Origin: Candidatus Latescibacterota bacterium
GTDB taxonomy: Bacteria; Latescibacterota; UBA2968; GCA-2709665
Length of the DNA stretch: 64,000 nucleotides
NCBI GenBank assembly: GCA_965219455.1
Contig: OZ244744.1
Span: 1,088,001-1,152,000 of the forward strand
Direction: 5' to 3'
The first letter of the stretch is position 1. Every line of letters begins with the position of its first letter. Shown here one piece after another: positions 6,001-22,693 of this stretch. Made by a program: the position numbers and the translations under genes. The notes beneath the pieces are model-generated. The model saw only the letters and a list, made by a program, of their open reading frames with translations, had not been told where the DNA came from and did no database searches.

Positions 6001-6742
6001 TCTGCGTGGGTATCATCCCGTAGATGAACTCATCGTCCTTGTCCAGCCACCATGAGGCGTCCTTCAGAATTTTCTCCGCATGAATCCCGCCCCACGCCGT
6101 CGAAGCCCGGTTCCGCCGCGCCCGCGCGATTTCGTCCGCTCCCACCGGCCCCACCGACTGGCGTTCACCGGGCGACCGATCGATGCGGTCCAACACCTCC
6201 CGCGTGATCTCCTTCCGTGCCGCTTGAAAATTGTGCTCCCATTCCTCCCGCAGTGCATCCCTGATTTTCAGAAAATCCACCGCCGGACCTTCCGCAAACG
6301 AGCCGTATACCTCAAATTGCGCGACATGCATCCGTCCCGGCGTTGATTCCGGGCCTCCGTCCGCGTTCTGCCATATCCGTACCGCCTCGACCTGCACGGG
6401 ATCGAAAACCAGCAGAGTCTTGAACTCGGGTTCCGGGATGTCCCGCGCCACGATGGCAACCCACGCACCGTCAACCCGGCCCTGAACTTCGACCCTGCGG
6501 GAGGACTCGGGCAAACGTCCCTTCCCCCAGTAAATCTCCACCCGGTCAACCCGGGCGAGGCTCGGAAACACAACCGCCGCCCACTGCGGCAGTCGTTCCG
6601 ACGCCGAGGCCCAGGCCGTATCGCTCGTGGAGGGGTCTTCAGTCGGCCTGACACCATCGTTGATCCTGGATGCGTGGTGGTTGTACGAAATGCTGCTCAC
6701 GTACGGCCGGCTGCCATTCCTGTACAATGCCAGATTTAACAT
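3098..6742 (-). CDS. Heparinase II/III-like polysaccharide lyase with N-terminal F5/8 type C (discoidin)-like domain
   Basis: HGHRDKLSI, DLGYP, HTASHATVCIDG, YERTL/VVDLFRVRGG. N-terminal NLAL...INDG...W...VRIW...QFEVYG pattern. Confidence 0.75.
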   Translation of the reverse strand: MLNLALYRNGSRPYVSSISYNHHASRINDGVRPTEDPSTSDTAWASASERLPQWAAVVFPSLARVDRVEIYWGKGRLPESSRRVEVQGRVDGAWVAIVARDIPEPEFKTLLVFDPVQVEAVRIWQNADGGPESTPGRMHVAQFEVYGSFAEGPAVDFLKIRDALREEWEHNFQAARKEITREVLDRIDRSPGERQSVGPVGADEIARARRNRASTAWGGIHAEKILKDASWWLDKDDEFIYGMIPTQNPRAISPSYERGCPIHGGGRKCMRTNTALDYRWQCVIGREWWYNGAVVHNPATGEPVEVWDDDDGWTAPEGFANPGTIYHFNSAWRYYALSKLFFHPYELTIASPDAYTGDTAVVQLSRAYAITGDERYAHRAGVMLNRLAEVYRFYNGTVDEQRPLTRGYLVQVSWEEMPIYNCMTACDLVMDSMLQDEALLAFFRSKGDCDYNGDGRLDSEDIRYNIRHNLFGYMYEWLHRAMAIQTGDYIIREGLVLWALGDLLANEELVEEAIEGRCGLAVNLTNNTFRDGKWWYDAPGYTVSSITRTILDRLFSMKDADRIRDSRLRIRESIEFARNIYCDGRIPAIGDTGGGDSRMKVLDPLANCDVEELAYIHTGDAGYRKRLLALSEGNVDRVRARYADANLLFHADPVRGETEKYVPRTALFHDSGVAILRTGDDIASRKHLVLNYGKGSGGHGHRDKLSINLITFGYDLACDLGYPTTFTHKKVDGWEKHTASHATVCIDGQAQELATGSLRFYGRTPGMQAVCASGKRAYPGCAEVYERTLVMVDAPGSDAYVVDLFRVRGGATHDYMFRSLSGDDGEDFRMEFPAGTETVRQARGTAAGEDVAFGTSPGLGFIKDVGRTFCDGLWSATWRVGDEENTGIRLTMLGDRNREIIHGKGEGYGFFGQSPWDACVAVKHSSDEDETLFAGVLEPYQGRPFVRSVEALTVSGGIGVKVCLDGRTDYVFRRLDKGSVCTAEIDGIPVAFDAEVARITVYESGGCDLHVLQGVRLRFGDEVLEGAALPAGRVDAVDPEDRSVVVALDSGDEIVNGDVIVFRNPAYICNSSCEVISVESMDGNRHRVRLNMSLNLSEGVVRYVDRERGLFATDTCMTKLEACPGGLFDGKAIHSEGKAIGSIETAGPDILGPEERTFTSAIGVDDPATGTINCFRFQDPRYGSALKVGDRFLVCDLNAGDRFEVMRSAHRAVR

Positions 6743-7217: not shown

Positions 7218-9440
7218 ATGCCAGGAATGCACTCTGGCGCGGCAGTTGTCCGAAGCGTGTTACTATTGTGTTTCGTTCTCGCAATGTTCAGCACGCCACC
7301 TTCGTCTGCAAACCAGAGGCCCCGAGTCGCGGTCGTGCTGAGTGGGGGAGGCGCGCGAGGTGGGGTACATATTGGCGTATTGCGCGTGCTCGAGCGCGAA
7401 GGCATACCCATCGATTTGATCGTGGGCGCGAGTTATGGCGCTTTGGTGGGAGGATTGTATGCTGCCGGATATTCTGTTGATGATCTCGAACGCATTGTTG
7501 TAGAAACAGATTGGTGGGAAATGACCAGCAACAGCCCTGACCGCCGTCTGTTGAATTTGCATCGCAAACCAATAGTCGATCGTCAGATGCTTGCATTGCG
7601 CCTCGATAAATTGGATCTGAAATTGCCTTTCGGGATGTTTGCCGGAAAAAAAATCCAGCATTTTCTCTATCAATTGACAATAGGCGCAACCTACCGGGCG
7701 CGAAACGATTTCGATCGCCTTCCAACGCCTTTTCGCGCAATTGCAACAGATATTGTAGCTGGCGAACAGGTCGTTCTAAAAGACGGCTCGCTCGGCGCGG
7801 CAATCAGAGCGAGTATTTCTATCCCCGGGGTATTTGTGCCTGTGAGTACAGGACAAACCCTTCTTGTGGATGGCGGCATTGTCAACAATCTGCCTGTAGA
7901 CGTCGCATTGGACGCCGGCGCTGATCTGGTTATTGCCGTGGATTGTGCCACCCCTTTGCGCACTCAAATGCACGAATTCGAAAATTTTATCGACGTCATC
8001 GATCAGGCTGTCAGTTTTCGAATCGAAGAAAAGAAAATGGTAAATCGAAAACTTGCCCATGTGTTGATGGTGCCCGATTTAAAAGGATTTGATAGCGGCG
8101 ATTTTAATCGCTCACATACAGTGATCCCGATTGGTGAAGAAGAAGCCGAAAAACATCTGGATGCGATCCGGAAAGCGCTGCAAGAGCTCGGCATTTCAAA
8201 ACGCGCTGGAAAGTCAAGAACGTCGATATTGCCGGATGATTTCGACTTTAGAACCTGGGCCGATATACCATCGGATATTGTCATCGACCGGGTGCGGATT
8301 GAGGGTTTGGAGCGCTACACAAGGGGCATTTCCATTGCAAGGTTGGAAAAGTTCATTAATAAGCCGACATCGTTTCGAGAACTGGAAGGTGAATCCGGCC
8401 GGTTATATGCGACGGGATTATTTCAAACGGTCGATTACCAGGTTATCTATCATGAAGACTATACCGAAGTGGTTTTTCAGGTGCTTGAAAACCCCCCAAG
8501 TGAATTGAAAATGGGACTTCGTTACGACAACGATTTTGGGGTTTCGGCACTGGCCGAGCTTGCACACCAAAATGTCTATGGCCGTGTAGTAGAGTTTTAT
8601 TTGCGCGGTTTATTGGGCTCTACCATGAAGTTTGGTGAATTGGATTTGGTTTTTCGCTCATTCAAGGGGCTGAGTCTTCTCGGGGAGATTCACGGCTGGA
8701 AACAAGAACGGGTGGCATATTATGAAGGAGAACCCCAGCAAACGTATTACGAGAGGCGTCTTCGCGGGCGATTGGGCATGCAGATTCTGTCCCATAGCTG
8801 GGGAGGTATCAACCTGGGGTATCAACTTGAGCATATGCTCATTCGCGATGAGCGCCAGGAATATGAGTCCGACTATCTACCCGCCCTTTGGCTATCTGCA
8901 GGTATCGACACGCGAGACGATGTGTTTGTGCCAAGACAAGGCTTCTATTTTAAAACGCAGGCAAAATGGGTCCATCGGACATTTTCACACAAGCAGGTGC
9001 AGACACGGCTCGCGTACTTCGCCAGCCCCCATCCGCAGCTGAGTGTGGGCTTCTGGTCTCACGGAGGCTACGTGACACAGCCCGCACCGATTGATGAAAA
9101 CTTCCTGCTGGGTGGTGCAGGACACTTGAGCAGCGCAGCATTGCGCGTTGTCGGTCTCCGGCGAGACGAACTTTCAGCTTTCAGGTTCGTATCGGCGCGC
9201 ATTTCTATTTGGAGCCACCTGAGATTCTGGGAATCCATACAGCGCAGCGCTATTGGCGTTTTCTATCAGGGCGGGCGGTACTATTTTCCTGCCTATACGG
9301 ATCAGCCATATACCAACATTCATGGTTTTGGTATCGGGGGTTATATCAACACGAAGATTTTTGGCCCCATTCGCATTGATATTGTGAGCACGAAAAAAAG
9401 GGATGTCCAGGTTTATACCGCAATCGGATTTGCGTTTTAA
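7218..9440 (+). CDS. Patatin-like phospholipase-POTRA-beta-barrel (PlpD-like, type Vd), copy 1
   Basis: Signal peptide, GGGARG, GASYG, DGG, POTRA-like segment (LYATGLFQTV), barrel ending IGFAF. Start uncertain; ORF open from 7020. Confidence 0.88.
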   Translation: MPGMHSGAAVVRSVLLLCFVLAMFSTPPSSANQRPRVAVVLSGGGARGGVHIGVLRVLEREGIPIDLIVGASYGALVGGLYAAGYSVDDLERIVVETDWWEMTSNSPDRRLLNLHRKPIVDRQMLALRLDKLDLKLPFGMFAGKKIQHFLYQLTIGATYRARNDFDRLPTPFRAIATDIVAGEQVVLKDGSLGAAIRASISIPGVFVPVSTGQTLLVDGGIVNNLPVDVALDAGADLVIAVDCATPLRTQMHEFENFIDVIDQAVSFRIEEKKMVNRKLAHVLMVPDLKGFDSGDFNRSHTVIPIGEEEAEKHLDAIRKALQELGISKRAGKSRTSILPDDFDFRTWADIPSDIVIDRVRIEGLERYTRGISIARLEKFINKPTSFRELEGESGRLYATGLFQTVDYQVIYHEDYTEVVFQVLENPPSELKMGLRYDNDFGVSALAELAHQNVYGRVVEFYLRGLLGSTMKFGELDLVFRSFKGLSLLGEIHGWKQERVAYYEGEPQQTYYERRLRGRLGMQILSHSWGGINLGYQLEHMLIRDERQEYESDYLPALWLSAGIDTRDDVFVPRQGFYFKTQAKWVHRTFSHKQVQTRLAYFASPHPQLSVGFWSHGGYVTQPAPIDENFLLGGAGHLSSAALRVVGLRRDELSAFRFVSARISIWSHLRFWESIQRSAIGVFYQGGRYYFPAYTDQPYTNIHGFGIGGYINTKIFGPIRIDIVSTKKRDVQVYTAIGFAF

Positions 9441-9556
9441 CGTATTGGAGATTCCGGGCTTATCGGTCCTCAGACCCCGACGCGCTGAATCATTCAGGTT
9501 GTTTTTCCGATGGGTTACCCAGAAGGCGGTGGAATCCATCTAATGCAGGGAACCAG

Positions 9557-11806
9557 ATGACGGACGAAAAATTCCACCCGAAAAAACGCGTGAGGGTTCA
9601 GCGCCCATTCGTCCGGAGCGTGTTACTATTGTGTTTCGGTCTTGCCGTGTTCAGCACGCTACCTTCGTCTGCGAATCAGAGGCCCCGTGTCGCGGTCGTG
9701 CTGAGTGGGGGCGGCGCACGCGGAGGGGCGCATATCGGCGTGCTGCGCGTACTCGAGCGCGAAGGCGTACCTATAGACATGATTGTGGGGGTGAGTTACG
9801 GCGCCCTGGTCGGGGGATTGTACGCCGCGGGATTTTCCGTTGACGATCTCGAACGCGTCATTCTGGAGACAGACTGGTGGGAGATTACCAGCAACAGCCC
9901 CGACCGCCGTCTGTCCAACATGAATCGCAAACCAATGGCCGACCGTCAGATGTTCGCGTTGCACCTTGAGGAATTGAAACTGAAATTGCCTTATGGCATT
10001 TTTGCCGGACAAAAGATCCATCAGTTCCTCAATCAACTGACCATTGGCGCAACCTTTAGGGCGCGCAACGACTTCGATCAACTACCAACGCCTTTTCGGT
10101 CAATCGCAACCGACATTCTGTCCGGAGAACAGGTCGTGATCGATAGCGGCTCGCTCGGCGCCGCGATCAGGGCCAGTATTTCCGTTCCAGGGGTATTCGC
10201 GCCGCTGAGTACGGAAAATACCCATCTCGTGGATGGCGGCATCGTCAATAACCTGCCGGTGGACGTCGCATTGGACGCAGGCGCCGATTTTGTCATTGCC
10301 GTAGACTGCGCCACGCCCCTGCGTACATTAAAAGAGGAAATTCAGGATATTATCGACGTCATCGACCAGGCCGTCAGTTTTCGGATAGAAGAAAGAAAGA
10401 TCGCAAACCGGAAACGCTCCCACGTGTTGATATTGCCCGAACTGCACAACTTCGATGGAAGCGATTTCAATCGGTCGTATACCCTGATTCCGATTGGTGA
10501 AAAGGCAACTGAAAAGGAATTGGACACGATCTGGACGGCATTGCAGACGCTTGGAGTACCAAGAAGCGTCGGAAAATCAAGAACGTCCAGATTGCCGGAA
10601 GCGTTCGATATCAATACGTGGGTGGATATACCACCGGACGTGGTAATCGACCGGGTTCGGATAGAGGGTGTACAGCGTTATTCCGAGGCCCTGTTCAAGG
10701 TACGGCTGGAAAAGTTCGTCAACAGGCCGATATCCTTCAAGGAACTCGAACGCGAGTGCGGCCGTCTGCATGCGACCGGATTGTTTCAGACGGTCGATTT
10801 CCACGTCTACTATCATGAAGGCGAGACCGAATTGGTCTTTCACGTGCTCGAAAACCCCCCAAGCGAGTTGAAAGTGGGGATTCATTACAACAACGATTAC
10901 CGGGTCTCGGTGCTGGGCGAGATTGCGCACCAAAGTACACTTGGCCGCATATCGGAACTCCATATTCGCGGACTGCTAGGCAATTTGAATTTTGCTGAAC
11001 TGGTCATGATTTTCCGGACCTCCGGGCGTCTCGGTCTGCTGGGGGAGGTCCAGGCCTGGAACCAGGATCGTTTGTATTTTCGAAATCGGCAGCGTGAGGG
11101 TGGGTACGAAGAACGGCGTTTTCGCTCGCGACTTGGATTGCAGGCACTGTTCCACAGCTGGGGTAGTTTCCAGGCAGGGTACCAGGTGGAGCACGCCCGT
11201 ATCCGCTATGCGGCCCGTTCAATAGGCGATGCATCCGAATTCCTGCCCGGCTTATGGTTATCCGCAGGGATTGACACACGAGACGACTCGATGGTGCCAA
11301 CGCAGGGCGTCTATTTTCAGACACGCGCAAAATGGATTCACCGGACGTTTTCACATAAGCAGATTCAAACCCAACTCGAGTTCTTCGCCAGTCCCCGTTC
11401 GCAATGGAGTGTGGGCTTCTCGTCCATCGGAGGCTACGTGACACAGCCAGCTCCTGTATTCGAATTCTTCCCATTGGGCGGCGCGGGACATTTCAGCAGC
11501 GCGGCATTGCCGGTCGTCGGACTCAAGCGGGATGAACTGCGGGTTGCCAGGTTCGCATCGGTAGGCATATCGCTATGGAGACAGGTTAAATTCTGGGAGT
11601 CGGTGCCGCGCAGTGGTATCGGGATTTTCTATCAGGGCGGACTATATGATATGAGTTCAAATCCGAAGCAGGATTATACACCTATCCACGGCTTCGGAGT
11701 TGGGGGCTATATCAACACGACGCTATTGGGACCCATTCGCGTTGAAATTGTGAGCACCCAGAAGAAGGATATCAAGATTAACGCCTCAATCGGTTTCGGA
11801 TTCTAA
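9557..11806 (+). CDS. Patatin-like phospholipase-POTRA-beta-barrel (PlpD-like), copy 2
   Basis: GGGARG, GVSYG, DGG, terminal IGFGF. Collinear paralog of the preceding gene. Confidence 0.88.
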   Translation: MTDEKFHPKKRVRVQRPFVRSVLLLCFGLAVFSTLPSSANQRPRVAVVLSGGGARGGAHIGVLRVLEREGVPIDMIVGVSYGALVGGLYAAGFSVDDLERVILETDWWEITSNSPDRRLSNMNRKPMADRQMFALHLEELKLKLPYGIFAGQKIHQFLNQLTIGATFRARNDFDQLPTPFRSIATDILSGEQVVIDSGSLGAAIRASISVPGVFAPLSTENTHLVDGGIVNNLPVDVALDAGADFVIAVDCATPLRTLKEEIQDIIDVIDQAVSFRIEERKIANRKRSHVLILPELHNFDGSDFNRSYTLIPIGEKATEKELDTIWTALQTLGVPRSVGKSRTSRLPEAFDINTWVDIPPDVVIDRVRIEGVQRYSEALFKVRLEKFVNRPISFKELERECGRLHATGLFQTVDFHVYYHEGETELVFHVLENPPSELKVGIHYNNDYRVSVLGEIAHQSTLGRISELHIRGLLGNLNFAELVMIFRTSGRLGLLGEVQAWNQDRLYFRNRQREGGYEERRFRSRLGLQALFHSWGSFQAGYQVEHARIRYAARSIGDASEFLPGLWLSAGIDTRDDSMVPTQGVYFQTRAKWIHRTFSHKQIQTQLEFFASPRSQWSVGFSSIGGYVTQPAPVFEFFPLGGAGHFSSAALPVVGLKRDELRVARFASVGISLWRQVKFWESVPRSGIGIFYQGGLYDMSSNPKQDYTPIHGFGVGGYINTTLLGPIRVEIVSTQKKDIKINASIGFGF

Positions 11807-12105
11807 CCTTGATTCGACATTTTTCGGGGACGTTAAGTCGCATATACGCAAGTGAATAAAGGCGATTTGACGTCGGATTTCCAGGATACTTAAGGTCACT
11901 GAACGTAAACGGGAAAAACATCCCTTTGGACGACCTTTACGCCCCGTTTCGGAAGGTTTCGTCGCGGTGCCGCGTTGCTGTTTCTTTCGAATTGAAGCTA
12001 ATGTCCAGGGTTATTCCTGGTTGCGGCGCGTTGAAGTGCTGCAGAATCGAATTTAACCGGACAGCGTCAGGTTGTCCGAATCAACCTGAATCACAAAGGA
12101 CAAGA

Positions 12106-14826
12106 ATGTCATTCACCAGGTGGAACCCCCTTTTTTTCATGCTCGTGCTCGCTTTTTCCGTTCCCGCAGAATCCGCCTCTCAGAAGGATTCACCGGCTCC
12201 AGGGTCCAGGATTCATCGATCCGTTCCTCCGCCTGGAGCAAAAACCCATAAGGTGATTCCAGGTGAGAGATTTCGCGCAGACGGATTCAAACGCTGGTTC
12301 TACGGCGACAATTACCGTGATCTCTGGAATACCCCCGTCGAGGTCGCGGTTCTTGACCTGGACAGCGTGGGAGGCGGACTTACGCCCCTTCGCACCGGCG
12401 GATTCGGACAATCCATTTCTCTTCACTTTACAGGCAAAAACGGCCGTCGTTATACAGTGCGTTCGCTGGACAAAGATGCCACCAGGAGGGTCCCCGACGG
12501 AATCGCGGATACGTTCGTAGGCGACGTCCTTCAGGATCTGATCTGCGCGATGCTTCCGACGGGCGCGCTCGTAGTCGATCCGCTGATGAAGGCCGCAGGC
12601 ATCCTCCATTCCAGGCATACGCTCGTCGTCATTCCGGACGACCCCAGGCTTGGGGAATTCCGTGGAGCGTTTGCCGGTCTGATTGGCATGCTGCAGGAAC
12701 ACCCTTCCGAAGGACCGGACGATACGCCCGGCTTCGCAGGTTCCCGGAAGGTCAGCGGCACGGAGAAGGTGATGAAAACCCTGGAAAAAAGCCCGTGTAA
12801 CCGCGTGGATGCCCGCGCCTTTCTGAAAGCGAGACTGATGGATTTCCTCATCAACGACAAGGACCGCCATCACGGGCAGTGGAGATGGGCGCGGTTCCCC
12901 GACGGCGATTGCCATACATGGCTCCCGATACCGGAGGATCGCGATCAGGCATTTATCCATTTCGAAGGGCTTGCCATGGCAATGGCAAGACGACAATTCC
13001 CCATACAGATCCAGTTTCAGAGGACGTATCCCAGTTTAGTCGGTCTCACGCTGACCGGGTGGGAAATAGACCGCGAATTCCTGGTCGAACTCGACAGGGC
13101 TGCGTGGGATTCGGTAGTAACGTCCTTTTGCGCGAGTCTGACCGACCGGGTTATCGACGACGCCGTGAGAGAGTTGCCGCCTCCGTATTACAAGAGGGTT
13201 GGAAAGACCCTGGCCGAAGCCCTCAAATCGAGGCGGAACGCTTTACCGGAGTTTGCCGCCAGTTACTATGAATTGATTTTACACGAGGCCGAAATATGGG
13301 CAACCGACAAAGACGAATACGTCCAGTGTGAGCACCGTCCGAACGGCGATCTCAGAGTCCGAATTGGCCTGATGGAGGGCGTTGGTGGTGAAAGGAAGAC
13401 GCCTTATTTCCAAAGGACGTTTCATCCCGAAGAAACCAGGGAAGTCAGAATACACCTCCGGGGAGGAGAAGACCGCGCCGAAATATCGGGAACGAAAGGG
13501 CGGATTGTCGTTCGCATCGATGGCGGGGGCGGAGATGACACGCTCACGAACTCATCCGTCGCCGGCGCCTCCAAGACGAGGTTTTATGATTCACGTGGAT
13601 CGAACCGGTTCGTCAAGGGCAACGGAGCGAGGATCGACGAGCGTCCTTACCAGCGGCCACATGGATCGCATACGCCGAATGCCAGGTACGCACTGGATTG
13701 GGGAAAGCGCACTGCGAATCTCCCGATTTTTATGATAAATCCGGACCTGCACGTGTACGCGGGAGTGCAGCATATCCGGCAGTATTACGGCTATCGGAAA
13801 GACCCGTTCTCTTCACAACACGATTTTACCGTCGGTCTTGCAGCACTCGACGGTCCCAAAAGCGTCAAGCCGTTTGTTTCCTATATGGGAAACTTTCGCC
13901 AGCCGGTGCGCTCCTTCGATGCCAGGGTCCACGTTGGGTACTCCGGGATCCAGCTGCTCAGATTCAACGGTTTCGGAAACAACACGGAGATTTCGCAACC
14001 GAAGTCCTATTACAAGTTGGAGCAGGGACTCCTCGTTTTCGCACCGGCGCTCGGGTTCCGGGCAAAAGACCATGAAGAAAACGTTCCGAGCGTTGGTATC
14101 GAGTCGCTTCGCTCGAAATTAAACGTTGACTTTGGGCCGATCATAAAGTATTCAAATGTACCGCTCAGTTCCAACAAGGGGAAGTACGTCGGTTCGCTCG
14201 ATCAACCCATGTACGGTACGGGTTCCTTCACTCAGGCAGGCGCACAGGCGGAAGTCATCTGCGATATGCGTGACAATCCGTTGTACTCCACTCAGGGGAT
14301 CTGGGTCAGGGTGGGCGGCGCCGTATACCCTGGGTTCGGGACTGTGGAATCGACATTCGGAAACATAGATCTGGTAGCCAGTACTTACCTGACCGGGCGT
14401 ATGCCGACGAACCCGACACTTGCTCTTCGAGCGGGAGGCAAGAAGGTATGGGGGACTTTCCCCTTCTACGAAAGCGCCTTTCTGGGCGGTCCCGGTGCGC
14501 TTGGCGCCGGCATTTCCAGAGGCAACCTGCGCGGCTTCCGGAAAAACCGGTTCGCCGGAGACGCTTCCCTGTATGGAAATTCGGAGCTTCGGCTGGTTCT
14601 CACAAAAATTGAACTGTTCGTGGAGGGAGAGCTGGGGCTGTTCGGCACCGCGGACGCCGGAAGGGTGTTTTATGACGGAGATCCTGCAAGTGCCGACAGA
14701 TGGCACACCAGTATCGGGGGTGGATTCTGGCTGTCCTTCCTCCAGCGCAGGCACACCTTGAGCGCGGCTGTCGTAAAAGGCGACGATCTGACGGGAGTAT
14801 ATCTGCGCGGCGGTTTCATGTTCTAA
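12106..14826 (+). CDS. BamA/TamA (Omp85)-family barrel protein with N-terminal atypical kinase-like domain, copy 1
   Basis: Signal peptide (MSFTRWNPLFFMLVLAFSVPA), GGFGQS, RSLDKD, DKDRHHGQW, PEDRDQAF; LRGFRKNRFAG Omp85 loop motif; terminal F. Confidence 0.75.
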   Translation: MSFTRWNPLFFMLVLAFSVPAESASQKDSPAPGSRIHRSVPPPGAKTHKVIPGERFRADGFKRWFYGDNYRDLWNTPVEVAVLDLDSVGGGLTPLRTGGFGQSISLHFTGKNGRRYTVRSLDKDATRRVPDGIADTFVGDVLQDLICAMLPTGALVVDPLMKAAGILHSRHTLVVIPDDPRLGEFRGAFAGLIGMLQEHPSEGPDDTPGFAGSRKVSGTEKVMKTLEKSPCNRVDARAFLKARLMDFLINDKDRHHGQWRWARFPDGDCHTWLPIPEDRDQAFIHFEGLAMAMARRQFPIQIQFQRTYPSLVGLTLTGWEIDREFLVELDRAAWDSVVTSFCASLTDRVIDDAVRELPPPYYKRVGKTLAEALKSRRNALPEFAASYYELILHEAEIWATDKDEYVQCEHRPNGDLRVRIGLMEGVGGERKTPYFQRTFHPEETREVRIHLRGGEDRAEISGTKGRIVVRIDGGGGDDTLTNSSVAGASKTRFYDSRGSNRFVKGNGARIDERPYQRPHGSHTPNARYALDWGKRTANLPIFMINPDLHVYAGVQHIRQYYGYRKDPFSSQHDFTVGLAALDGPKSVKPFVSYMGNFRQPVRSFDARVHVGYSGIQLLRFNGFGNNTEISQPKSYYKLEQGLLVFAPALGFRAKDHEENVPSVGIESLRSKLNVDFGPIIKYSNVPLSSNKGKYVGSLDQPMYGTGSFTQAGAQAEVICDMRDNPLYSTQGIWVRVGGAVYPGFGTVESTFGNIDLVASTYLTGRMPTNPTLALRAGGKKVWGTFPFYESAFLGGPGALGAGISRGNLRGFRKNRFAGDASLYGNSELRLVLTKIELFVEGELGLFGTADAGRVFYDGDPASADRWHTSIGGGFWLSFLQRRHTLSAAVVKGDDLTGVYLRGGFMF

Positions 14827-15161
14827 GAGCCTGCCGGAGATCCGCAGTTCTGCCCTTATGCCGTTGTAACTTTACCAGTCTATATTCACTGAGAATAGTG
14901 GGTATTGTCTTCATGCGGTTCCTCCCGGTCCGTCAAGGAACTACCGGACAGGATCCGATTTCTTGTTCACAACGACTCAACCTTAATTCGTCTTATTTCG
15001 GCGAAGTCACGCTATACCTTATATATTGACGTGGCAGTGAAAGACCTCCCCGGATCTCAGTTAACGGGGGTCAACCGGACTTGCGGTCTGACTTATCGCA
15101 GAAATGCATTCATCTGTCCAGTTTCCCGTTGTCAAAGCCACCAAGTAGCCGAAGGGCAATA

Positions 15162-17864
15162 ATGGGTTTATCCAAATGGGGTTTCCTTGCATTCCTGGGG
15201 TTTGCTCTATCTGTTCCGGCAGAATCCACGCCTCAGAAGGATTCACCGGCTCCAGGGCACAGAATTCACCGGTCGATTCCGCCGCCTGGCGCGAAGACCC
15301 ATTTGGTGATTCCTGGTGAGAGATTCCGCGCCGGTTGGTTCCAACGCTGGTTTTACGGCAGCGATTACCGGGATCTCTGGACTACCCCTATCGAGATTGT
15401 GGTCCTCGACCTGGACAGTATTGGAGGTGGCTTGACGCCGCTTCGCACCGGCGGCGCAGGACAATCTATATCTCTGCATTTTAGAGGGCAAGACGGACGC
15501 CGATATACGGTTCGGTCGTTGGATAAAGACCCTACCAAGAGGATATGGGACGAACTCAGGGATACGATCGTGGAGGACGTCCTGCAGGACTTGATCAGTG
15601 CGCTTCTACCCACCGGAGCGCTTGTTGTGGACCCGCTGATGGAAGCCACGGGTATTCTGCACGCGAAGCATACGCTCGTCGTAATCCCCAACGACACCAG
15701 ACTCATGGAGTTCCAAGGGGAGTTTGCTGGCTTAGTAGGACTGCTGCAGGAACACCCTTCCGAAGGGCCCGACGATACGCCCGGTTTTGCCCATTCCCGG
15801 AAGATCAGTGGAACGAAAAAGCTGCGGAAACACCTTGAAAAAGGCCCGTGCAACCGCGTCGATGCACGTGCCTATCTGAAAGCGAGGCTGTTGGATCTTC
15901 TCATCAACGACAAGGACCGTCACTACGATCAGTGGAGGTGGGCGCGGTTTCCCGATGGCGGCTGCTATACCTGGCTTCCAATACCCGAGGACCGGGACCA
16001 GGCATTTATCGACTTGGACGGATTTGCTATGGCATTGGTGCGTAGAGCACACCCCAGGCAAATCGAGTTCGACGACAAATATCCAAGTCTGGTAGGCCTA
16101 TCGACTACCGGCTGGGAAATGGATCGCGAGTTCCTGGTCGAACTCAATTGGACTGCATGGGATTCGGTAATAGCGGAGTTTCGCGGGGACTTGCCGGATT
16201 CGGTCATGGAGAATGCGGTTCGGAAGCTCCCGCAACCGTATTACGAGATCGTTGGAGAATCTCTTGCACAGGCGCTTAAAGCGAGGCGGGACGCATTGCC
16301 TGGATTCGCCCTGAGATACTATAAGTTGATCACCCGAGAAGCCGAAATCCAGGCGACTGATCGGGACGAATACGTCCTGTGTGAGCATCTTCCGAGCGGT
16401 GACCTCGCGGTACGCATTGGCCTAACGGAGGGCGACGAGAGAGAACGGCAGACGGCCTATTTCCGGCGGACCTTCCGCGCCCAGGAAACCAGTGAGGTCC
16501 GAATATACCTGCGTGGAGGAGACGATCAATCGGAGATAGTGGGGAGCGGGGGACGGATTGCCGTTCGCATCGATGGCGGCGGCGGGAACGACTCGTTTAC
16601 AAACGAATCCCGGGCTGGTACTTCAAAGACCCGGTTTTATGATTATCGTGGAAAAAATCGGTTCAGTAAAGGCAGTGGTGCGAAAATCGACGAGCGACCC
16701 TACACACGTCCTCCCGCACGACGCCTTACCGCGCGGTATGCACTCGACTGGGGCATGCAATCAATTACGTTCCCCATTGTCATGGCGGGACCGGACCTGG
16801 GCGTTTTCGTGCGAATGCTCCATAGCCGGCAGTATTTCGGCTATCGAAAAACTCCTTTCTCTTCGCAACTTTTTTTTAACGTGGGGCTGGCGAGAAACAA
16901 CAATCTTCTGCCCTTTGTTTCCTTTACCGGGAACTTCCGCCAACTGTTTCACGACGTCGACATGAAGGTCGACTTCAAGTACTCCGGAATCCAGACGATC
17001 CGGTTCAATGGATTCGGCAACGGAACAGAACTTCGGAATCCATCCTCCTTCTACAATTTACGGCAGAAGCATGTCGTATTTGCACCGGCCATCGAGTTTC
17101 GAACGGATCTGCACAAAGATAACAGGCACGGTGGGATAGCACCGGTTCGCTCGAAACTGAACGTTGGCCTGGGGCCGATCGTCAAGTATTCAAACACACC
17201 TCTGGATACCAATAGGGAGACCTACATAGGTTCGCTCAATCTCCCGCAATACGGTACGGGTTCCTTCGGCCAGGCAGGCGTCCAGGGTGAAATCAGGTTC
17301 GACACGCGTGATAATCCGGGGTTCGCCACCCGGGGATTCCTGGTCAGTGTTTCTGGCGCCGTCTACCCGGGAGTCTGGAACGTGGAATCGGCCTTTGGTA
17401 GAACAAACGGAGCAGCACACATTTACATGACGGCTCGAATGCCGACTGACCCGACCCTTGCCCTAAGAGCCGGTGGCAAGAAGGTGTGGGGACATTTTCC
17501 CTTCCACGAAAGCGCCTTCCTTGGCGGTCCCGGCTTTGCCGGCGGTGGCGCGCACAGTGGCAATTTACGCGGTTTCCGGAAAAACCGGTTCGCCGGAGAT
17601 ACGTCGTTGTATGGAAACTCCGAGCTACGGTTGGTTCTGGCCAAAATCAGGATCCTGGTACCAGGAGAGTTCGGCCTGTTCGGGATGGTGGATACAGGCC
17701 GGGTTTTCTATGACGGAGACCCGCACAATGGGAACACATGGCATACCAGCCTGGGTGGCGGAATATGGTTGTCATTCCTCAGGCGACGGCAGACCTTGAG
17801 CGTCGCAATCGTGAATGGAGACGATTTGACGGGAGTATATCTGCGCTCTGGTTTTTTGTTCTAA
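15162..17864 (+). CDS. BamA/TamA (Omp85)-family barrel protein with N-terminal atypical kinase-like domain, copy 2
   Basis: Paralog of 12106..14826 with DKDRHYDQW, PEDRDQAF, LRGFRKNRFAG and terminal F. Confidence 0.75.
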   Translation: MGLSKWGFLAFLGFALSVPAESTPQKDSPAPGHRIHRSIPPPGAKTHLVIPGERFRAGWFQRWFYGSDYRDLWTTPIEIVVLDLDSIGGGLTPLRTGGAGQSISLHFRGQDGRRYTVRSLDKDPTKRIWDELRDTIVEDVLQDLISALLPTGALVVDPLMEATGILHAKHTLVVIPNDTRLMEFQGEFAGLVGLLQEHPSEGPDDTPGFAHSRKISGTKKLRKHLEKGPCNRVDARAYLKARLLDLLINDKDRHYDQWRWARFPDGGCYTWLPIPEDRDQAFIDLDGFAMALVRRAHPRQIEFDDKYPSLVGLSTTGWEMDREFLVELNWTAWDSVIAEFRGDLPDSVMENAVRKLPQPYYEIVGESLAQALKARRDALPGFALRYYKLITREAEIQATDRDEYVLCEHLPSGDLAVRIGLTEGDERERQTAYFRRTFRAQETSEVRIYLRGGDDQSEIVGSGGRIAVRIDGGGGNDSFTNESRAGTSKTRFYDYRGKNRFSKGSGAKIDERPYTRPPARRLTARYALDWGMQSITFPIVMAGPDLGVFVRMLHSRQYFGYRKTPFSSQLFFNVGLARNNNLLPFVSFTGNFRQLFHDVDMKVDFKYSGIQTIRFNGFGNGTELRNPSSFYNLRQKHVVFAPAIEFRTDLHKDNRHGGIAPVRSKLNVGLGPIVKYSNTPLDTNRETYIGSLNLPQYGTGSFGQAGVQGEIRFDTRDNPGFATRGFLVSVSGAVYPGVWNVESAFGRTNGAAHIYMTARMPTDPTLALRAGGKKVWGHFPFHESAFLGGPGFAGGGAHSGNLRGFRKNRFAGDTSLYGNSELRLVLAKIRILVPGEFGLFGMVDTGRVFYDGDPHNGNTWHTSLGGGIWLSFLRRRQTLSVAIVNGDDLTGVYLRSGFLF

Positions 17865-18158
17865 TGTCTCTCTCGGAAAAGTCGTTGACCAGTTTTTGAA
17901 ATGTCCTATGTTCTCTCATGCGCGCCTGGCGCACCCTTCAACAATTAAGGGCATCATGGGGAGAGCGACCTCGGAAGCCGAGCAATCGCGTAAATCTGTT
18001 TCCGGGCTATAACACCCGTAGCCCGTCAAAATGCCTTTACGTTCGTCTTCGTGAACACAGATGTCGCATTATTGACAGATTAAAACGCCACAGATTTTAC
18101 GAGAGCCGGACAGAATTCGGATTCTCCGTCAGGCTACTAGCCAGTCAAGGAGGATGCT

Positions 18159-19097
18159 GTGTCTAACAACATCATCGTACGTCTGCTCATCTATTATATC
18201 ACCTGGCTTGTGATTCTCAATGTGATCTTTCATGTTTTTCCCGAAATTCTCCATTACGTCGCCAAGGAGCGTGAACGCATATTCGTGGGAAAATCGCTCG
18301 GCTCGGGCGTCGACGCTGCGGTTCCACTGGGAAACATCAAGGAAGGGATAAACCGCCTTCTCGATCCGGCACATACGATTCCGGTTGTGGTCGCGCTGGT
18401 ACTGGCCTTCGGGGTTACCCTCCCGATTACCTGGGTATATGCCTGGACGCATTCGCCCAAGAAATACAGCCAATCCTTTTTACACACGCTGCTCGTGATG
18501 CCAGTCGCCATCGCGCTGGTTGTCTTTCTGGTTAAAGGCAGTCTTGCCCTTGCGTTCAGCCTGGCTGGCATCGTGGCCGCCGTCAGCTTTCGGATCTCGC
18601 TCAGAGCGACTATGGATGCCGTGTACATGTTTATGGTTATAGGGATCGGGCTGGCCGCCGGTACTCAGCTTACGACAGTGGCCTACATCGCATCGTTGGC
18701 TTTTGTCACCATAACGCTGGGCGTCTGGAAGACCAATTATGGAGCACAACCTCCTGTACTTTCCGGCTGGAGAATTGTCTCGCCGAGGAAATCGGTCGAA
18801 ACCTCCGAATCAGAGGATAATGCAGCCGGGAATTCCGTTGATTTCCGGATCGCCGTGCATGCAACGAACGTCAATGCAGCGCAAAAAGCAGCAGGCCCGA
18901 CCCTTGACTCCGATAGCATAAAGTGGAAGGTCGCAGATATGATCGAGAATGAAGATGGAACGGTCGTCGTTATGTATGATGTCTCTTCGAATCAATCCGT
19001 CGCTCTGCCCTCTCTGGTCCGGGATATTGAGAAGAGAGGAAAAAAGCGTATTAAAGGCGTCAAACTGACCGAAGGTGAGACAGATCAGAGTTTATAA
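18159..19097 (+). CDS. DUF4956-family inner-membrane protein
   Basis: Multiple TM helices; VKGSLALAFSLAGIVAAVSFR, MDAVYMF..IGIGLAAG. AGGAGG RBS before a GTG start. Confidence 0.75.
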   Translation: MSNNIIVRLLIYYITWLVILNVIFHVFPEILHYVAKERERIFVGKSLGSGVDAAVPLGNIKEGINRLLDPAHTIPVVVALVLAFGVTLPITWVYAWTHSPKKYSQSFLHTLLVMPVAIALVVFLVKGSLALAFSLAGIVAAVSFRISLRATMDAVYMFMVIGIGLAAGTQLTTVAYIASLAFVTITLGVWKTNYGAQPPVLSGWRIVSPRKSVETSESEDNAAGNSVDFRIAVHATNVNAAQKAAGPTLDSDSIKWKVADMIENEDGTVVVMYDVSSNQSVALPSLVRDIEKRGKKRIKGVKLTEGETDQSL

Positions 19098-19178
19098 CCT
19101 GTAATCTAAAAGCCTCCAGTCAACAGGGAAAATCATGCAGGCAGGAACTGACGGGAATTGATAACGGTATAATTGTAA

Positions 19179-20147
19179 ATGAAGAACTTTAGAGAAAAAT
19201 ACACGCAGGACTACCCTGGTCTCGGCTTTCTTCTCTACATGCTGACGATGGGATCAGGAACGGCCGCAACCGCGGAATTCACTGGAGATGCCTTAAACGC
19301 AAATCCGGAAACTTCAGGTGTCCTCCCTTCCGCGGACACAATGACGGCATCCAAAAGGAAGATATCCCTCGAAAGCTATACCCTGGATCCGGAGACCGCG
19401 ACGCACTGGAAGCTTCCCAGGGATCTCGAGGAGATCTCCGGTCTGGCAATGACCGGAGACGAACGACTCCTGGCGCACAACGATGAGAGAGCGATCATTT
19501 TCGAGATCGATTATCTGCAAGGGTCAATCGTAAAGGCATTCCAACTGGCGGATATGAATCACCCGGTTGCCGGTGATTTCGAGGGCATTGCCGCGACTGA
19601 CGACGGGATCTTCCTGGTCACAAGTACGGGGCGGCTGTACGAGTTTCATGAGGGAATTGCCGGGGAGTCCGTTCTGTTTAACGTCTACACGACCGGGGTT
19701 GGCAGAGATTTCGAAATAGAGGGCCTGACGTATGACCGGGGCCTTCGCGTACTCCTGCTGATGTGCAAGGATGCTCGCAGCCTGGAAACGGAAGGGCAGC
19801 TGGCGATATACCAGTGGTCAGTTGACGAAAAACAGATGAAAGAAAATGGACGCATCCTGATACGAGTGAAAGAATTCGCCCGACACGTCAGTGGACGGAA
19901 ATTCCATCCTTCGGGAATCGAGCGGCATCCGGTTTCCGGGAATTATTTCGTCGTAGCTGGCCGTCAGGGGGCGATCGCCGAAATTACGCCGGCTGGACAG
20001 GTCGTTGCCGTCAGGAAGTTTCCCGCCAGGTGGCATCGTCAGGTTGAAGGTATTACCTTCGCTGCGGACGGCACGCTGATCGTTGCCGATGAAGGCGCGG
20101 GGAGGAAAGGCAGGCTGACCCTCTATCCGGTTTCGGACGGTTGGTAA
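19179..20147 (+). CDS. SdiA-regulated (YjiK)-like exported beta-propeller
   Basis: Repeated EISGL, HNDE, DFEGI, EIEGL, PSGI, QVEGI, ADEG blade motifs; N-terminal hydrophobic stretch. Confidence 0.75.
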   Translation: MKNFREKYTQDYPGLGFLLYMLTMGSGTAATAEFTGDALNANPETSGVLPSADTMTASKRKISLESYTLDPETATHWKLPRDLEEISGLAMTGDERLLAHNDERAIIFEIDYLQGSIVKAFQLADMNHPVAGDFEGIAATDDGIFLVTSTGRLYEFHEGIAGESVLFNVYTTGVGRDFEIEGLTYDRGLRVLLLMCKDARSLETEGQLAIYQWSVDEKQMKENGRILIRVKEFARHVSGRKFHPSGIERHPVSGNYFVVAGRQGAIAEITPAGQVVAVRKFPARWHRQVEGITFAADGTLIVADEGAGRKGRLTLYPVSDGW

Positions 20148-20219: not shown

Positions 20220-20258
20220 AAAAAAAGGCCCCGATTCGATCTTCCCGGGCCCTTGTTT
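20220..20258. terminator. Probable bidirectional intrinsic terminator
   Basis: A7-GGCCCCG...CGGGCCC-TTGTTT between convergent genes. Confidence 0.5.
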
Positions 20259-20278
20259 CATTACTGCGTGTCTCGCCA

Positions 20279-21370
20279 CTATGCGGATATCGGCCTGCGC
20301 TCCATAAACGACCTTGTGATGTCGATAATCAACCTGATATCCTCCCGCGCTTCGGACGCAGGCGTCCGGCAGGCGTCCTGCCCGACAATACATGAATGAA
20401 AGTGGCGCAGTTCGCGCACAAACGGGCTTTCCCACGCCACCGCCGGCCGACGGGTGGACGTCTCGCCCCGGACGTTCATTTCATACACAACAACCGTGGA
20501 CAGAATCCCCCTCGCGAAACCCGTCGGATAGGAAACCAGCACGCGCCGGTCGCCGCCGTACACTTCCAGCGTCTCCTTGAAGTCCCAGAGTTCCGGCAGG
20601 TCGACCCAGGACGCGACGCAACGTGCGCCGTTGCTGTACGACAGCACCGTCGAAATCGCCCGCCCTTCGTTCCACACCTCCGTGCTGATCACCGACTCCG
20701 GCATCCCCAGCATCACACGAAGACAGTACAAATCGTGGATCATGCTTCCCGAAAGCGTGAAGAATGCCCGAACCGCGTCTCCCGGCGCCTCACCGATCGC
20801 CTCAAGTACCGCCGCGGCCCTGGCTGCGTGCGTCTCCGCGACCTGTGCCGCCGGCAAATCGTCAAACCGCATGAGCCTGTATTGGCGCAGATGCAGCCGG
20901 TTGTCCGGGTGCAGATGATTCACCTGAACGAATCGAATATCCGACATCCCGTCCACCTCGGCTTTAGCGGTCTCGAACGCCGGATCGTACACTTTCATAT
21001 ACCCGGCCTGCGCGACCACGCCAGCCCGCTCGGCGGCCTGTGCGATCGTGTCCGCCTCTCTTAGGGAAAAACAGACCGGCTTTTCAATCAACACATGTTT
21101 GCCCGCGTCCATCGCGGCGACGGCCGCTTCGGTCTTCGGGTCTGAATGGCACAGGAGCACCGCCTCCACGTCGTCCGACCTGACAAGCCTGCGGAAATCC
21201 GTCACCGACGCCGGAACATGGAATGACTTCGCCGCCCAGTCAGCCAATCCGGGCGACAGATCGCATACGGTCGTGACCTCGAACTCCTCCCTCAACCCTG
21301 CCAGATTCGGCAGGTGCTGCACCTGCGCGATTGCGCCGCATCCCACCACCCCCAGCTTGACGGGTGCCAT
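20279..21370 (-). CDS. Gfo/Idh/MocA-family oxidoreductase
   Basis: GVVGCGAIA, GKHVLIEKP, MIHDL. Confidence 0.9.
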   Translation of the reverse strand: MAPVKLGVVGCGAIAQVQHLPNLAGLREEFEVTTVCDLSPGLADWAAKSFHVPASVTDFRRLVRSDDVEAVLLCHSDPKTEAAVAAMDAGKHVLIEKPVCFSLREADTIAQAAERAGVVAQAGYMKVYDPAFETAKAEVDGMSDIRFVQVNHLHPDNRLHLRQYRLMRFDDLPAAQVAETHAARAAAVLEAIGEAPGDAVRAFFTLSGSMIHDLYCLRVMLGMPESVISTEVWNEGRAISTVLSYSNGARCVASWVDLPELWDFKETLEVYGGDRRVLVSYPTGFARGILSTVVVYEMNVRGETSTRRPAVAWESPFVRELRHFHSCIVGQDACRTPASEAREDIRLIIDITRSFMERRPISA

Positions 21371-22098: not shown

Positions 22099-22386
22099 TT
22101 ATCCCACCGCTCGAAGTTTTCGGATTTCCTTGTCGGGTCGACTTTTGGCCAAGTCATGATTTCGTTGTAGATTTAACCATAACTCCGGCGTTGTTCCCAG
22201 AGCTTGAGCAAACAGCCAGGCGGTATTCGGGGTTACGCCTCTTTTGCCACGAATAATCTCGTTGACCCTCTGGAGCGGTACTTCGATATGCCTGGCGAAC
22301 GCCACCTGTGTTATTTCCAGGGGCTTTAGGAATTCTTCCAGAAGAACTTCCCCCGGATGGGTCGGAATTCGGTTTTCCGGCAGCAT
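22099..22386 (-). CDS. higA: HigA antitoxin (XRE HTH)
   Basis: HPGEVLLEEFL, NEIIRGKRGVT, WLNLQ. Confidence 0.93.
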   Translation of the reverse strand: MLPENRIPTHPGEVLLEEFLKPLEITQVAFARHIEVPLQRVNEIIRGKRGVTPNTAWLFAQALGTTPELWLNLQRNHDLAKSRPDKEIRKLRAVG

Positions 22387-22402
22387 TTTGCCTCCAGATT
22401 AA

Positions 22403-22693
22403 TTAGTGATAGTCAGTCAGCGATACCTGATTGGCGGAATTCTCAGACCATCGAAAGATTATTCGCCACTGATCATTGACACGGATCCCATGAAATCCCC
22501 GAAGACCACCCTTCAGAGCTTCCAAATGATTGCCAGGAGGAACCCTCAAGTCTTGCAGGCGATGTGCAGTTGCAAGAACATCCAATTTACGCAAAGCAAT
22601 ACGTGCTACATGCGGGGGAAAGCTGCGGACGCGTCTCGTTTTTCTGTTGTGGTACAAATCCTCAGTTGCGGAGTCTCCAAATGACTCGATCAT
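22403..22693 (-). CDS. higB: HigB (RelE/ParE-family) toxin
   Basis: MIESF, DLRVPPGN.LEAL, IRVNDQWRIIF, terminal DYH; upstream of the antitoxin. Confidence 0.93.
   Translation of the reverse strand: MIESFGDSATEDLYHNRKTRRVRSFPPHVARIALRKLDVLATAHRLQDLRVPPGNHLEALKGGLRGFHGIRVNDQWRIIFRWSENSANQVSLTDYH

Follow-up and report, generated by a model that had tools for sequence, protein, structure and literature searches.

Six co-oriented genes were found between positions 7218 and 20147 of the window (the whole 64,000-nucleotide stretch of Latescibacterota DNA that was analysed), and open reading frames are present on the plus strand at all the positions that the initial annotation had claimed for them. 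These are the PlpD-like lipase genes patA (7218..9440) and patB (9557..11806), two genes whose predicted products join a kinase-like domain to an Omp85 barrel, kB1 (12106..14826) and kB2 (15162..17864), a DUF4956 gene (18159..19097) and a gene for a YjiK-like propeller (19179..20147); a GC-rich hairpin (20220..20262, no strand assigned) follows. The intergenic gaps are, in order, 116, 299, 335, 294 and 81 bp, and as four of the genes are separated by about 300 bp, co-transcription can be regarded only as possible. The locus is indeed lower in GC than its flanks (0.537, against 0.611 on the left and 0.583 on the right), with values per kb of 0.48-0.57 within it and mostly 0.58-0.66 outside. This dip is common to the closest relatives (loci L004, L005, L006 and L010) and absent from the other lineages. 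Recent horizontal transfer was rejected as its source, since the cluster and its flanking genes are syntenic with the window in L004 and L005, the two loci checked; any transfer should therefore be old.

The lipases resemble the type Vd autotransporter PlpD of P. aeruginosa (5fqu), in which a patatin passenger and an Omp85 barrel are combined as in patA and patB. The patA protein (740 aa) has a signal peptide, the Pfam domains Patatin (PF01734, 4.1e-33) and Omp85 (6e-8) and the motifs GGGARG, GASYG (GxSxG) and DGG, and its patatin domain matched PlpD with an E value of 2.2e-63. The patB protein (749 aa), which shares 67% identity with patA, has shown a patatin domain (PF01734, 1.1e-32) with the motifs GVSYG and DGG. 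In both proteins PF01103 and PF19143 of the Omp85 barrel scored above cut-off and the C-terminal residue is Phe. Residues 395-635 of patA aligned to residues 363-622 of BamA in the NCBIfam BamA model, reaching into the last POTRA, and Pfam gave no POTRA match in either lipase. These were the only two PlpD-like genes found in the search of their own genome.

The kB1 and kB2 proteins (906 and 900 aa) share 67% identity, the same domains and the same motifs; their likely starts are the ATG at 12106, in an open reading frame running from 11926, and position 15162, in the frame 15081-17864. kB1 is composed of a signal peptide, a kinase-like domain (residues 47-392; 12244..13281, plus strand), an all-beta domain (394-511; 13285..13638, plus strand) and a 16-strand Omp85 barrel (534-902), and its full-length AF2 model has a pLDDT of 90.4 and a pTM of 0.89. 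The C-terminal halves of kB1 and kB2 scored 73 and 76 bits against NF047779 (family cut-off 200) and 18.9 and 23.1 bits against Pfam Omp85, slightly under the cut-off of 24. NCBIfam returned a partial Omp85 model only, and the family profile gave barrel matches only among the PDB sequences. Foldseek matched the modelled barrel to Sam50, BamA and TamA at E values of about 1e-9 and with TM-scores, normalised to the target, of up to 0.70. By structure prediction, the C-terminal half is confirmed as an Omp85-superfamily barrel. The barrel Phe signals described earlier were also observed, as all four barrel proteins of the locus end in Phe (...GFAF, ...GFGF, ...GFMF and ...GFLF). The linker of kB1 occupies the place expected of POTRA and consists of strands only in the DSSP assignment of the model, and the fold searches barely probed it. 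In a FastTree phylogeny kB1 falls together with the L004 and L005 genes, each a single copy, and the branch of kB2 lies deeper; judged by sequence, kB2 is an older paralogue of kB1 and not a recent tandem copy.

The assignment of the N-terminal domain as a kinase was borne out as a predicted fold. The model of this domain in kB1 (pLDDT 93.4) gave 51 Foldseek matches at E<=1e-3, and all the matches listed are kinase-fold, with CtkA, HipA and CotH leading. In a structure search of the whole PDB (48,161 chains), the best scores were obtained for CotH (Z 14.3; 249 residues, 4.0 A), PI4KIIalpha (14.3) and CtkA (13.1), the tier below them reached at most 11.1, and the top 50 rows were almost all kinases. 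Over the different structure searches the Z scores ranged from 14.3 to 14.5 for CotH, 14.2 to 15.1 for PI4KII and 13.1 to 14.0 for CtkA, in alignments of 218-267 residues with a sequence identity of 8-12%. Hence, the modelled kB domain has the same atypical kinase fold as Bacillus CotH (5jd9/5jda), human PI4KII alpha/beta and H. pylori CtkA; it differs from these in having Gln for the loop Asn and in being, as modelled, tethered to an outer-membrane barrel. At the sequence level, Pfam gave no match for the domain at E<=10, including CotH (PF08757), PI3_PI4_kinase and HipA_C, and hhalign against 12 CotH domains found no significant kinship (probability 1.5%, E 0.033). Its alignment with the CotH profile was confined to the catalytic core, where the two are in register and D253 pairs with the loop Asp, Q258 with Asn and D278-x-D280 with D-x-D. 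The core of kB1 reads D251-K-D253-R-H-H-G-Q258 ... D278-R-D280-Q-A-F283 (12856-12954, with K123 at 12472-12474), and has the same order as in CotH, D-x4-(N/Q) followed by D-x-D-x2-F. Among 83 kinase-barrel sequences of 37-72% identity, there is no variation at K123, D251, R254, D278 and D280, and conservation at D253 and Q258 is at least 90%. The position of the catalytic-loop Asn is Gln throughout the family, the residue roles being set by motif order and not by superposition.

The DUF4956 protein (312 aa; PF16316, 37.3 bits against a cut-off of 30.6) is encoded by a single copy in its genome. It has about six hydrophobic segments followed by some 110 aa that form a soluble C-terminal domain, and from its sequence it is predicted to be an inner-membrane protein with the C-terminal domain in the cytoplasm. 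R145 and D153 are invariant in the family alignment. Its neighbours in the ESM Atlas are DUF4956 clusters, the profile retrieved no meaningful sequence relative among the solved structures of the PDB, and the C-terminal part had no Pfam match at E<=10. The propeller protein (322 aa) begins with a hydrophobic signal that lacks Cys and matched the Pfam families Phytase-like (PF13449, 35.1 bits against 27.6) and SdiA-regulated (PF06977, 31.3 against 21). Its family profile matched E. coli YjiK (3qqz) with an E value of 7.4e-9, and it is of the same family. In 34 sequences E85, D102, D133, E135, E181, H286, E290 and E305 are invariant, and these acidic and His residues recur once per blade. The propeller is probably an exported metal-dependent hydrolase.

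The gene neighbourhoods were compared in the best 80 of at least 598 loci related to the kinase-barrel, with partners counted within 10 kb. DUF4956 was found in 40 of these loci, the propeller in 37 and PPK1 in 26, the partner genes and PPK1 being verified by Pfam. One or more of these three partners occur in 57/80 loci and in 29 of the 35 with full flanks; the 23 loci having none comprise 17 on short contigs and 6 with full flanks. The gap between DUF4956 and kB has a median of 73 bp (in the window, DUF4956 starts 294 bp from the kB2 stop), and gene order and strand differ among the loci. The long PPK1 forms of L056 and L039, the two tested, carry an N-terminal CYTH domain. Patatin-Omp85 genes lie near the kinase-barrel in four loci only (L004, L005, L006 and L010), all of them close relatives. 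The co-occurrence proposed for six genes therefore stands for four of them (kB1, kB2, DUF4956 and the propeller gene) and fails for the two lipases beyond the near clade. Hence, the conserved unit is kinase-barrel, DUF4956 and propeller, and patA and patB are a lineage-specific addition in this Latescibacterota clade, outside the conserved core. They are probably co-expressed neighbours and not parts of the mechanism, and the proposal that lipid hydrolysis coupled to phosphate transfer forms the essence of the system found no support.

The suggested link to polyphosphate is visible in the relatives, in the 26 loci with PPK1 nearby; PPK1 is missing from the other 54, and the cluster of the window has no polyphosphate synthase gene. 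In the search of its own genome for ppk and VTC genes, PPK1 and PPK2 were present, the only ppk1 lying about 365 kb from the locus, and neither VTC nor CotH was found. In a sample of 81 genomes of the phylum Latescibacterota, the kinase-barrel was found in 19, DUF4956 in 37, VTC in 19 and CotH in 26. The 37 DUF4956 genomes are the exact union of the kinase-barrel and VTC sets, which overlap in one genome only (G079). All 19 kinase-barrel genomes have DUF4956, in 18 of them as a form of about 310 aa within 3 kb, and CotH occurs in one of them. In the VTC genomes the distance from DUF4956 to VTC is no more than 4 kb in 19/19, and CotH is present in 17/19. A gene set of cotH, a polyphosphate polymerase and DUF4956, located beside pel operons of Gram-positives, is described in the accessible part of PMC7112168. 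The association of DUF4956 with CotH and VTC, which had been pointed out in the initial annotation, thus agrees with that part of the paper and with the counts in the phylum. The further idea of the kinase-barrel as a substitute for CotH gains support from the tie in fold (Z 14.3) and from the presence of either kinase-barrel or VTC in 37/37 DUF4956 genomes.

From these results, the core of the locus is read as a polyphosphate-linked envelope phosphotransfer module that would be the counterpart of the CotH/VTC/DUF4956 set, and we give this reading a probability of roughly 0.55. Both systems would unite DUF4956, an atypical kinase of the CotH/PI4KII type that is exported and a polyphosphate-making enzyme, and within the phylum they replace each other genome by genome. 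In the kB module, the kinase comes from a family without annotation and is joined to an Omp85 barrel, the enzyme of the relatives is PPK1 and not VTC (with ppk1 unlinked in the own genome), DUF4956 is longer (about 310 aa) and a YjiK-like propeller is added, which is tied to kB in 37/80 loci. According to the proposed working, kB1 and kB2 would be outer-membrane Omp85 barrels, each bearing an exported CotH/PI4KII/CtkA-like kinase domain; the kinase-barrel would replace the secreted CotH, and PPK1 would replace VTC as the source of polyphosphate. PPK1 would make polyphosphate in the cytoplasm and DUF4956 would pass it to the envelope. The barrel-tethered kinase domain, using polyphosphate or another donor, may then transfer phosphate to a lipid, glycan or protein of the envelope, with the propeller acting as an opposing or processing phosphoesterase. 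In the eukaryotic (yeast) VTC complex, a polyphosphate polymerase is coupled to a membrane channel. The idea shared with the kB module would be the coupling of cytoplasmic polyphosphate synthesis to membrane passage, and by this analogy transport of polyphosphate by DUF4956 is a conjecture.

To our knowledge, there is no ATP in the periplasm or outer membrane. An ATP-free envelope containing a conserved, anchored kinase-fold protein raises the question of the phosphoryl donor, and the genetic tie of a polyphosphate enzyme and DUF4956, with its exact either/or relation to the VTC module, offers an answer that can be tested. A bolder form, that in several phyla polyphosphate from PPK1 (or VTC), threaded through the inner membrane by DUF4956, and not ATP, feeds a barrel kinase outside the cytoplasm that modifies a lipid, glycan or protein of the envelope, with the propeller as the matching phosphoesterase, is put forward only tentatively. 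If true, the Gram-negative envelope would have its first kinase system independent of ATP, the kinase-barrel family, DUF4956 and the YjiK-like propellers (three large uncharacterised families) would gain a first role, and the Omp85-fused enzymes would include a new enzyme class. It would also bear on gene retention in polyphosphate-accumulating groups, e.g. Gemmatimonadota. Literature searches on CotH with VTC and polyphosphate, on Omp85 kinase-like proteins with polyphosphate (among the papers listed, judged by title or abstract) and on Omp85 with CotH gave no account of a kinase-barrel module, and none was found for DUF4956 function in main texts, to which the search extended. The accessible portion of a preprint on new kinase-like families (10.64898/2026.09.18.752743) has no mention of Omp85, CotH or polyphosphate.

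The kB proteins may instead be type Vd-like autotransporters, whose surface or released kinase acts on molecules of a host or competitor with the ATP of that host or competitor, the polyphosphate link being regulatory and DUF4956 and the propeller accessories. PlpD and kB do share the plan of an exported enzyme domain before an Omp85 barrel, and kB repeats the layout of the adjacent PlpD-like genes from signal peptide to C-terminal Phe. Moreover, CtkA, which is a secreted kinase, is among the best structural matches, the linker of kB1 contains one RTX-like nonapeptide with a Ca-binding type of motif (GGGGDDTLT, residues 473-481), and the closest relatives of kB in the tree form a clade of several mixed phyla. 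However, the places of patatin and POTRA in PlpD are taken in kB by a kinase-like domain followed by an all-beta linker; Pfam matched no POTRA in kB1 or kB2, and residues 394-511 of the model contain no beta-alpha-alpha-beta-beta unit between enzyme and barrel. The family (3030 clusters at 50% identity and E<=1e-3, most of about 860 aa) is found in soil Gemmatimonadota, Ignavibacteria and Chlorobium MAGs, a spread which argues against a general host-directed effector. The strict pairing with the inner-membrane DUF4956 (19/19 genomes) and the often adjacent PPK1 also speak against this explanation, which is considered unlikely.

It is likewise improbable that the kinase-like domain is a non-catalytic binder of polyphosphate or nucleotide, or a gate, with the barrel as an outer-membrane conduit by which polyphosphate or phosphate is exported or taken up and the propeller degrading phosphate esters for scavenging. 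The invariant Arg residues of the family (R119, R243, R254, R376 and R377) would suit a polyanion ligand, and the Gln in place of the catalytic-loop Asn, the failure to find a Ppx-GppA exopolyphosphatase in the own genome and the HlyD-like export adaptor in the sister module (encoded with a signal-peptide CotH, VTC and DUF4956 in a genome of the same phylum) are in line with such a role. Pseudokinases, however, usually lose the Lys and Asp motifs of active kinases, and here the Lys and both Asp motifs are invariant or nearly so across the 83 sequences.

That all six genes form one system of PlpD-like lipid hydrolysis and phosphate transfer or scavenging, e.g. for outer-membrane lipid remodelling, is very doubtful, because in spite of their common orientation, the patatin-Omp85 genes beside kB in the four close relatives (L004 and L005 also having the flanking genes of the window), the tie of the PI4KII lipid kinases as best structural match and the PAP2 lipid-phosphatase genes near kB in 6/80 loci, 76 of the 80 loci have no patatin-Omp85 and the number of lipase genes (one in L004, two in L005) varies independently of the kB number.

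The terminator said to close the locus was only partly recovered. The consensus scan found no plus-strand terminator after 20147, and the fold energy at the hairpin is ordinary (z -0.89); Rfam families had no match in positions 1-30000 of the window. Read by eye, the hairpin is plausible, with the stem GGCCC...GGGCC about 80 nt 3' of the propeller gene, A7 before it and the T-rich tract CTTGTTTC after it. The position of the T-run beside it suits the convergent minus-strand gene (20279-21370) better, and the hairpin is possibly a bidirectional terminator common to this gene and the locus.

The region 7218-20147 of the window comprises six genes, all lying on the + strand. The first two, patA (7218-9440) and patB (9557-11806), are PlpD-like lipase genes with 67% identity, each combining a patatin domain (E 4.1e-33 and 1.1e-32, respectively) having GxSxG and DGG motifs with an Omp85 barrel; the patatin part of patA matched P. 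aeruginosa PlpD (5fqu) at E 2.2e-63, and the two are the sole genes of their kind in the 5.84 Mb of their own genome. They are followed by kB1 (likely start 12106, end 14826) and kB2 (15162-17864), again 67% identical, whose C-terminal halves are Omp85-like and whose first ~520 residues gave no Pfam or NCBIfam match even at E<=10. The locus is completed by a DUF4956 membrane protein gene (18159-19097; PF16316, 37.3 bits), the single one in this genome, and by a SdiA-regulated, phytase-like propeller gene (19179-20147), related to E. coli YjiK (3qqz) at E 7.4e-9 with a family profile. The initial annotation of six co-oriented genes with four Phe-ended barrels was found to be correct, as all four barrel proteins have a C-terminal Phe, and the GC profile agreed with the low GC content claimed for the locus (0.537, against 0.611 in the left and 0.583 in the right flank). 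The terminator said to close the locus stood only in part: a GC hairpin with A7 on one side and a T-rich stretch on the other is present ~80 nt past the propeller stop, but it was not reported by the terminator scan, its folding energy is ordinary and its T-run is better suited to the convergent gene. Due to the gaps of 116, 299, 335, 294 and 81 bp between the genes, a single transcript is plausible only.

The structure of kB1 residues 25-520 was predicted by AlphaFold from 83 aligned sequences of the family (37-72% identity to kB1), with pLDDT of 93.4 and pTM of 0.93. Foldseek comparison of this model with the PDB gave 51 matches at E<=1e-3, the best being the atypical kinases CtkA, HipA, CotH, HipT, PI4KIIalpha and Fam20C, and re-alignment of the matches gave Z scores of 15.1 for PI4KIIbeta, 14.7 for PI4KIIalpha, 14.5 for CotH and 14.0 for CtkA. 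A second, independent fold search over 48,161 representative chains returned CotH (Z 14.3; 249 residues, 4.0 A), PI4KIIalpha (14.3 and 14.2) and CtkA (13.1), after which the scores dropped to 11.1 or lower. In the family K123, D251, R254, D278, D280, R119, R243, R376 and R377 are invariant, and D253, Q258, W259 and R279 reach a conservation of 90% or more; the catalytic set is nearly complete, with Gln in place of Asn. Profile-profile comparison of the domain with 12 CotH domains of the same phylum was not significant (probability 1.5%, E 0.033), and the lone stretch aligned in this overall non-significant match is the catalytic core, in register, where D253 corresponds to the loop Asp of CotH, Q258 to its Asn, D278-x-D280 to its D-x-D and F283 to its Phe. 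The fold matches, the catalytic residues and the non-significant CotH profile together identify the modelled domain as a new family within the kinase fold, whose predicted structure is closest to CotH and PI4KII, and which may possess kinase activity.

The full-length kB1 model (pLDDT 90.4, pTM 0.89) consists of an N-terminal signal-peptide helix (8-16), the kinase-like domain (47-392), an all-beta domain (394-511) with one RTX-like nonapeptide (GGGGDDTLT), a short linker (512-533), in which confidence is low over residues 522-526 (pLDDT <50), and a 16-strand barrel (534-902) matching Sam50, BamA and TamA at E ~1e-9. The fold searches hardly covered the beta domain. No POTRA-type unit was seen in this model, a feature which sets the kinase-barrel proteins apart from PlpD-type autotransporters.

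The family is large: at a cut-off of E<=1e-3 a search with the N-terminal domain gave 3030 clusters (50% identity), of which 1382 also pass E<=1e-30. Lengths are mostly ~860 aa, i.e. barrel-fused, and relatives are named in the databases only as 'BamA/TamA family' or 'hypothetical'. Scanning for the family pattern in a single genome of each species detected at least 598 loci, of which the best 80 were kept; these come from MAGs of Latescibacterota, Poribacteria, Gemmatimonadota, Acidobacteriota, KSB1, Ignavibacteria, Bacteroidota, Chlorobium and Calditrichaceae. In a FastTree phylogeny of 87 kinase-barrel proteins, a fully supported clade of 26 rows with 58-82% identity (the window's proteins and loci L004-L023) mixes Latescibacterota (10), Poribacteria (6), Gemmatimonadota (4), Acidobacteriota (1), KSB1 and unlabelled rows, and sits nested among Gemmatimonadota rows at ~40-47%; this branching hints at module transfer between phyla or at mislabelled bins. 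Two loci differ in layout. In L041 of a Bacteroidota MAG (9902-13876) the Omp85 part forms an ORF of its own (383 aa) downstream of a kinase-like ORF (537 aa), with a calcineurin-like phosphoesterase ORF between the two, and this may represent a split or alternative enzyme and barrel arrangement. In L048 (9920-14203) the kinase-barrel match opens a 1427-aa ORF whose residues 1108-1377 form a Hanks-type Pkinase domain, which may reflect a gene fusion or read-through from one gene into another.

For neighbourhood analysis of the 80 loci, six-frame ORFs were called and clustered, own profiles were built and partners were counted within 10 kb of the kinase-barrel gene. DUF4956 was present in 40 loci, the propeller in 37 and PPK1 in 26; at least one of the three was found in 57/80 (29 of the 35 loci with full flanks), DUF4956 together with the propeller in 29 and all three in 6. 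Of the 23 loci having no partner, 17 lie on short contigs. At least two kinase-barrel copies occur in 17 loci. Pfam confirmed the identities of PPK1, DUF4956 and propeller in distant loci. The median gap between DUF4956 and the kinase-barrel gene is 73 bp, and the partners share its strand in 33/43 cases for DUF4956 and 29/38 for the propeller. Partners stand either before or after it, and this variable order and strand argues for proximity being kept by selection rather than by inherited order. The conserved module is a barrel-tethered kinase-fold domain with DUF4956 and often the YjiK-like propeller, and its genetic link to polyphosphate synthesis holds, as had been proposed. In the window's own genome the module has the propeller, its kinase-barrels are duplicated beside the PlpD-like genes and PPK1 is unlinked: one PPK1 gene lies ~365 kb away, a two-domain PPK2 is present, and no VTC, CotH or Ppx-GppA exopolyphosphatase was found in this genome, rated 100% complete.

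Other genes also recur near the kinase-barrels, namely PAP2 phosphatases in 6/80 loci and, within 10 kb in 7/80 (L047, L059, L061, L076, L077, L080 and L082), an HD domain fused to a PycTM (Pycsar effector-type) membrane domain. PPK1 carries a ~380-aa N-terminal extension in L056 (7121-10345) and L039 (12115-15636), and in both of these long forms the extension holds a CYTH domain, scoring 24.7 and 23.9 bits against a cut-off of 23.2. The catalytic domain of VTC belongs to this superfamily too.

The distribution of the module was analysed in one set of 81 genomes of the phylum. The kinase-barrel profile matched 53 of them, 33 by the barrel part only (other Omp85 proteins), one by a fragment (G013) and 19 with the kinase domain included. 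DUF4956 was found in 37 genomes, CotH in 26 and VTC in 19. Every one of the 19 kinase-barrel genomes has DUF4956: 18 carry a ~310-aa form no more than 3 kb from the kinase-barrel, and G047, whose kinase-barrel is at the edge of its contig, gave a weak DUF4956 match on another contig. DUF4956 lies within 4 kb of VTC in 19/19 VTC genomes, and none of the 37 DUF4956 genomes lacks both kinase-barrel and VTC. CotH is present in 17/19 VTC genomes and in 1/19 kinase-barrel genomes, in agreement with the earlier idea that the kinase-barrel takes the place of CotH. The kinase-barrel/DUF4956 and CotH/VTC/DUF4956 modules are mutually exclusive in the sampled genomes save G079, the only one with both kinase-barrel and VTC; the genomes are kin, and this either/or is a pattern and not a statistic. 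G079 has kinase-barrel and DUF4956 alongside VTC, DUF4956 and CotH, and its second kinase-barrel copy is split into two ORFs. The VTC module of G008 runs in the order signal-peptide CotH with lamin-tail domains, HlyD-like adaptor, VTC and DUF4956, so that an exported kinase accompanies a cytoplasmic polymerase, as in the kinase-barrel module. The same cotH / polyphosphate polymerase / DUF4956 grouping adjoins pel operons of Gram-positives, according to PMC7112168.

The DUF4956 sequence suggests about six membrane segments with both termini inside (positive-inside reading), and the protein may connect the cytoplasmic polyphosphate enzyme with the envelope. The kinase domain would act in the periplasm or at the cell surface; as ATP is lacking there, polyphosphate stands out as the candidate donor. 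The propeller, in which invariant Glu, Asp and His residues repeat at intervals of one blade, may be a metal-dependent phosphoesterase which reverses or processes the kinase product. The resemblance to PI4KII and the nearby PAP2 genes suggest a lipid substrate, the pel association of the sister module a glycan, and the likeness to CotH and CtkA a protein. Two improbable alternatives, a type Vd-like secreted kinase effector and, equally doubtful, a kinase-like domain serving as a non-catalytic gate of a polyphosphate conduit, depart from the polyphosphate-fed kinase chiefly in domain location and turnover. Literature searches turned up no study that describes a kinase-Omp85 fusion or assigns DUF4956 a function.

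The lipase pair is part of the cluster in the window's clade only, with patatin-Omp85 near the kinase-barrel in 4/80 loci (L004, L005, L006 and L010), so the lipases are probably not integral to the system as first claimed, and one coupling lipid hydrolysis to phosphate transfer is the least likely reading. Copy numbers also vary, from one lipase and one kinase-barrel in L004 and two and one in L005 to two and two in the window. Synteny with L004 and L005 extends to the flanks: one flank carries thiD, thiE and a heparinase-like gene, and the opposite flank GFO, cupin, GFO and a xanthine-dehydrogenase-like gene set. The 1214-aa heparinase II/III-like protein with F5/8 type C domain (3098-6742, - strand) is divergent from patA and is encoded at the same position in L004 and L005. 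Between cupin and GFO, a HigB-like toxin (PF05015, 4.6e-21) with HTH antitoxin (22099-22693, - strand) occupies a spot of low GC (0.502); this pair looks inserted in the window's genome, since the gap between the two neighbours, 800 bp in the window, measures ~440 bp in L004 and ~390 bp in L005.
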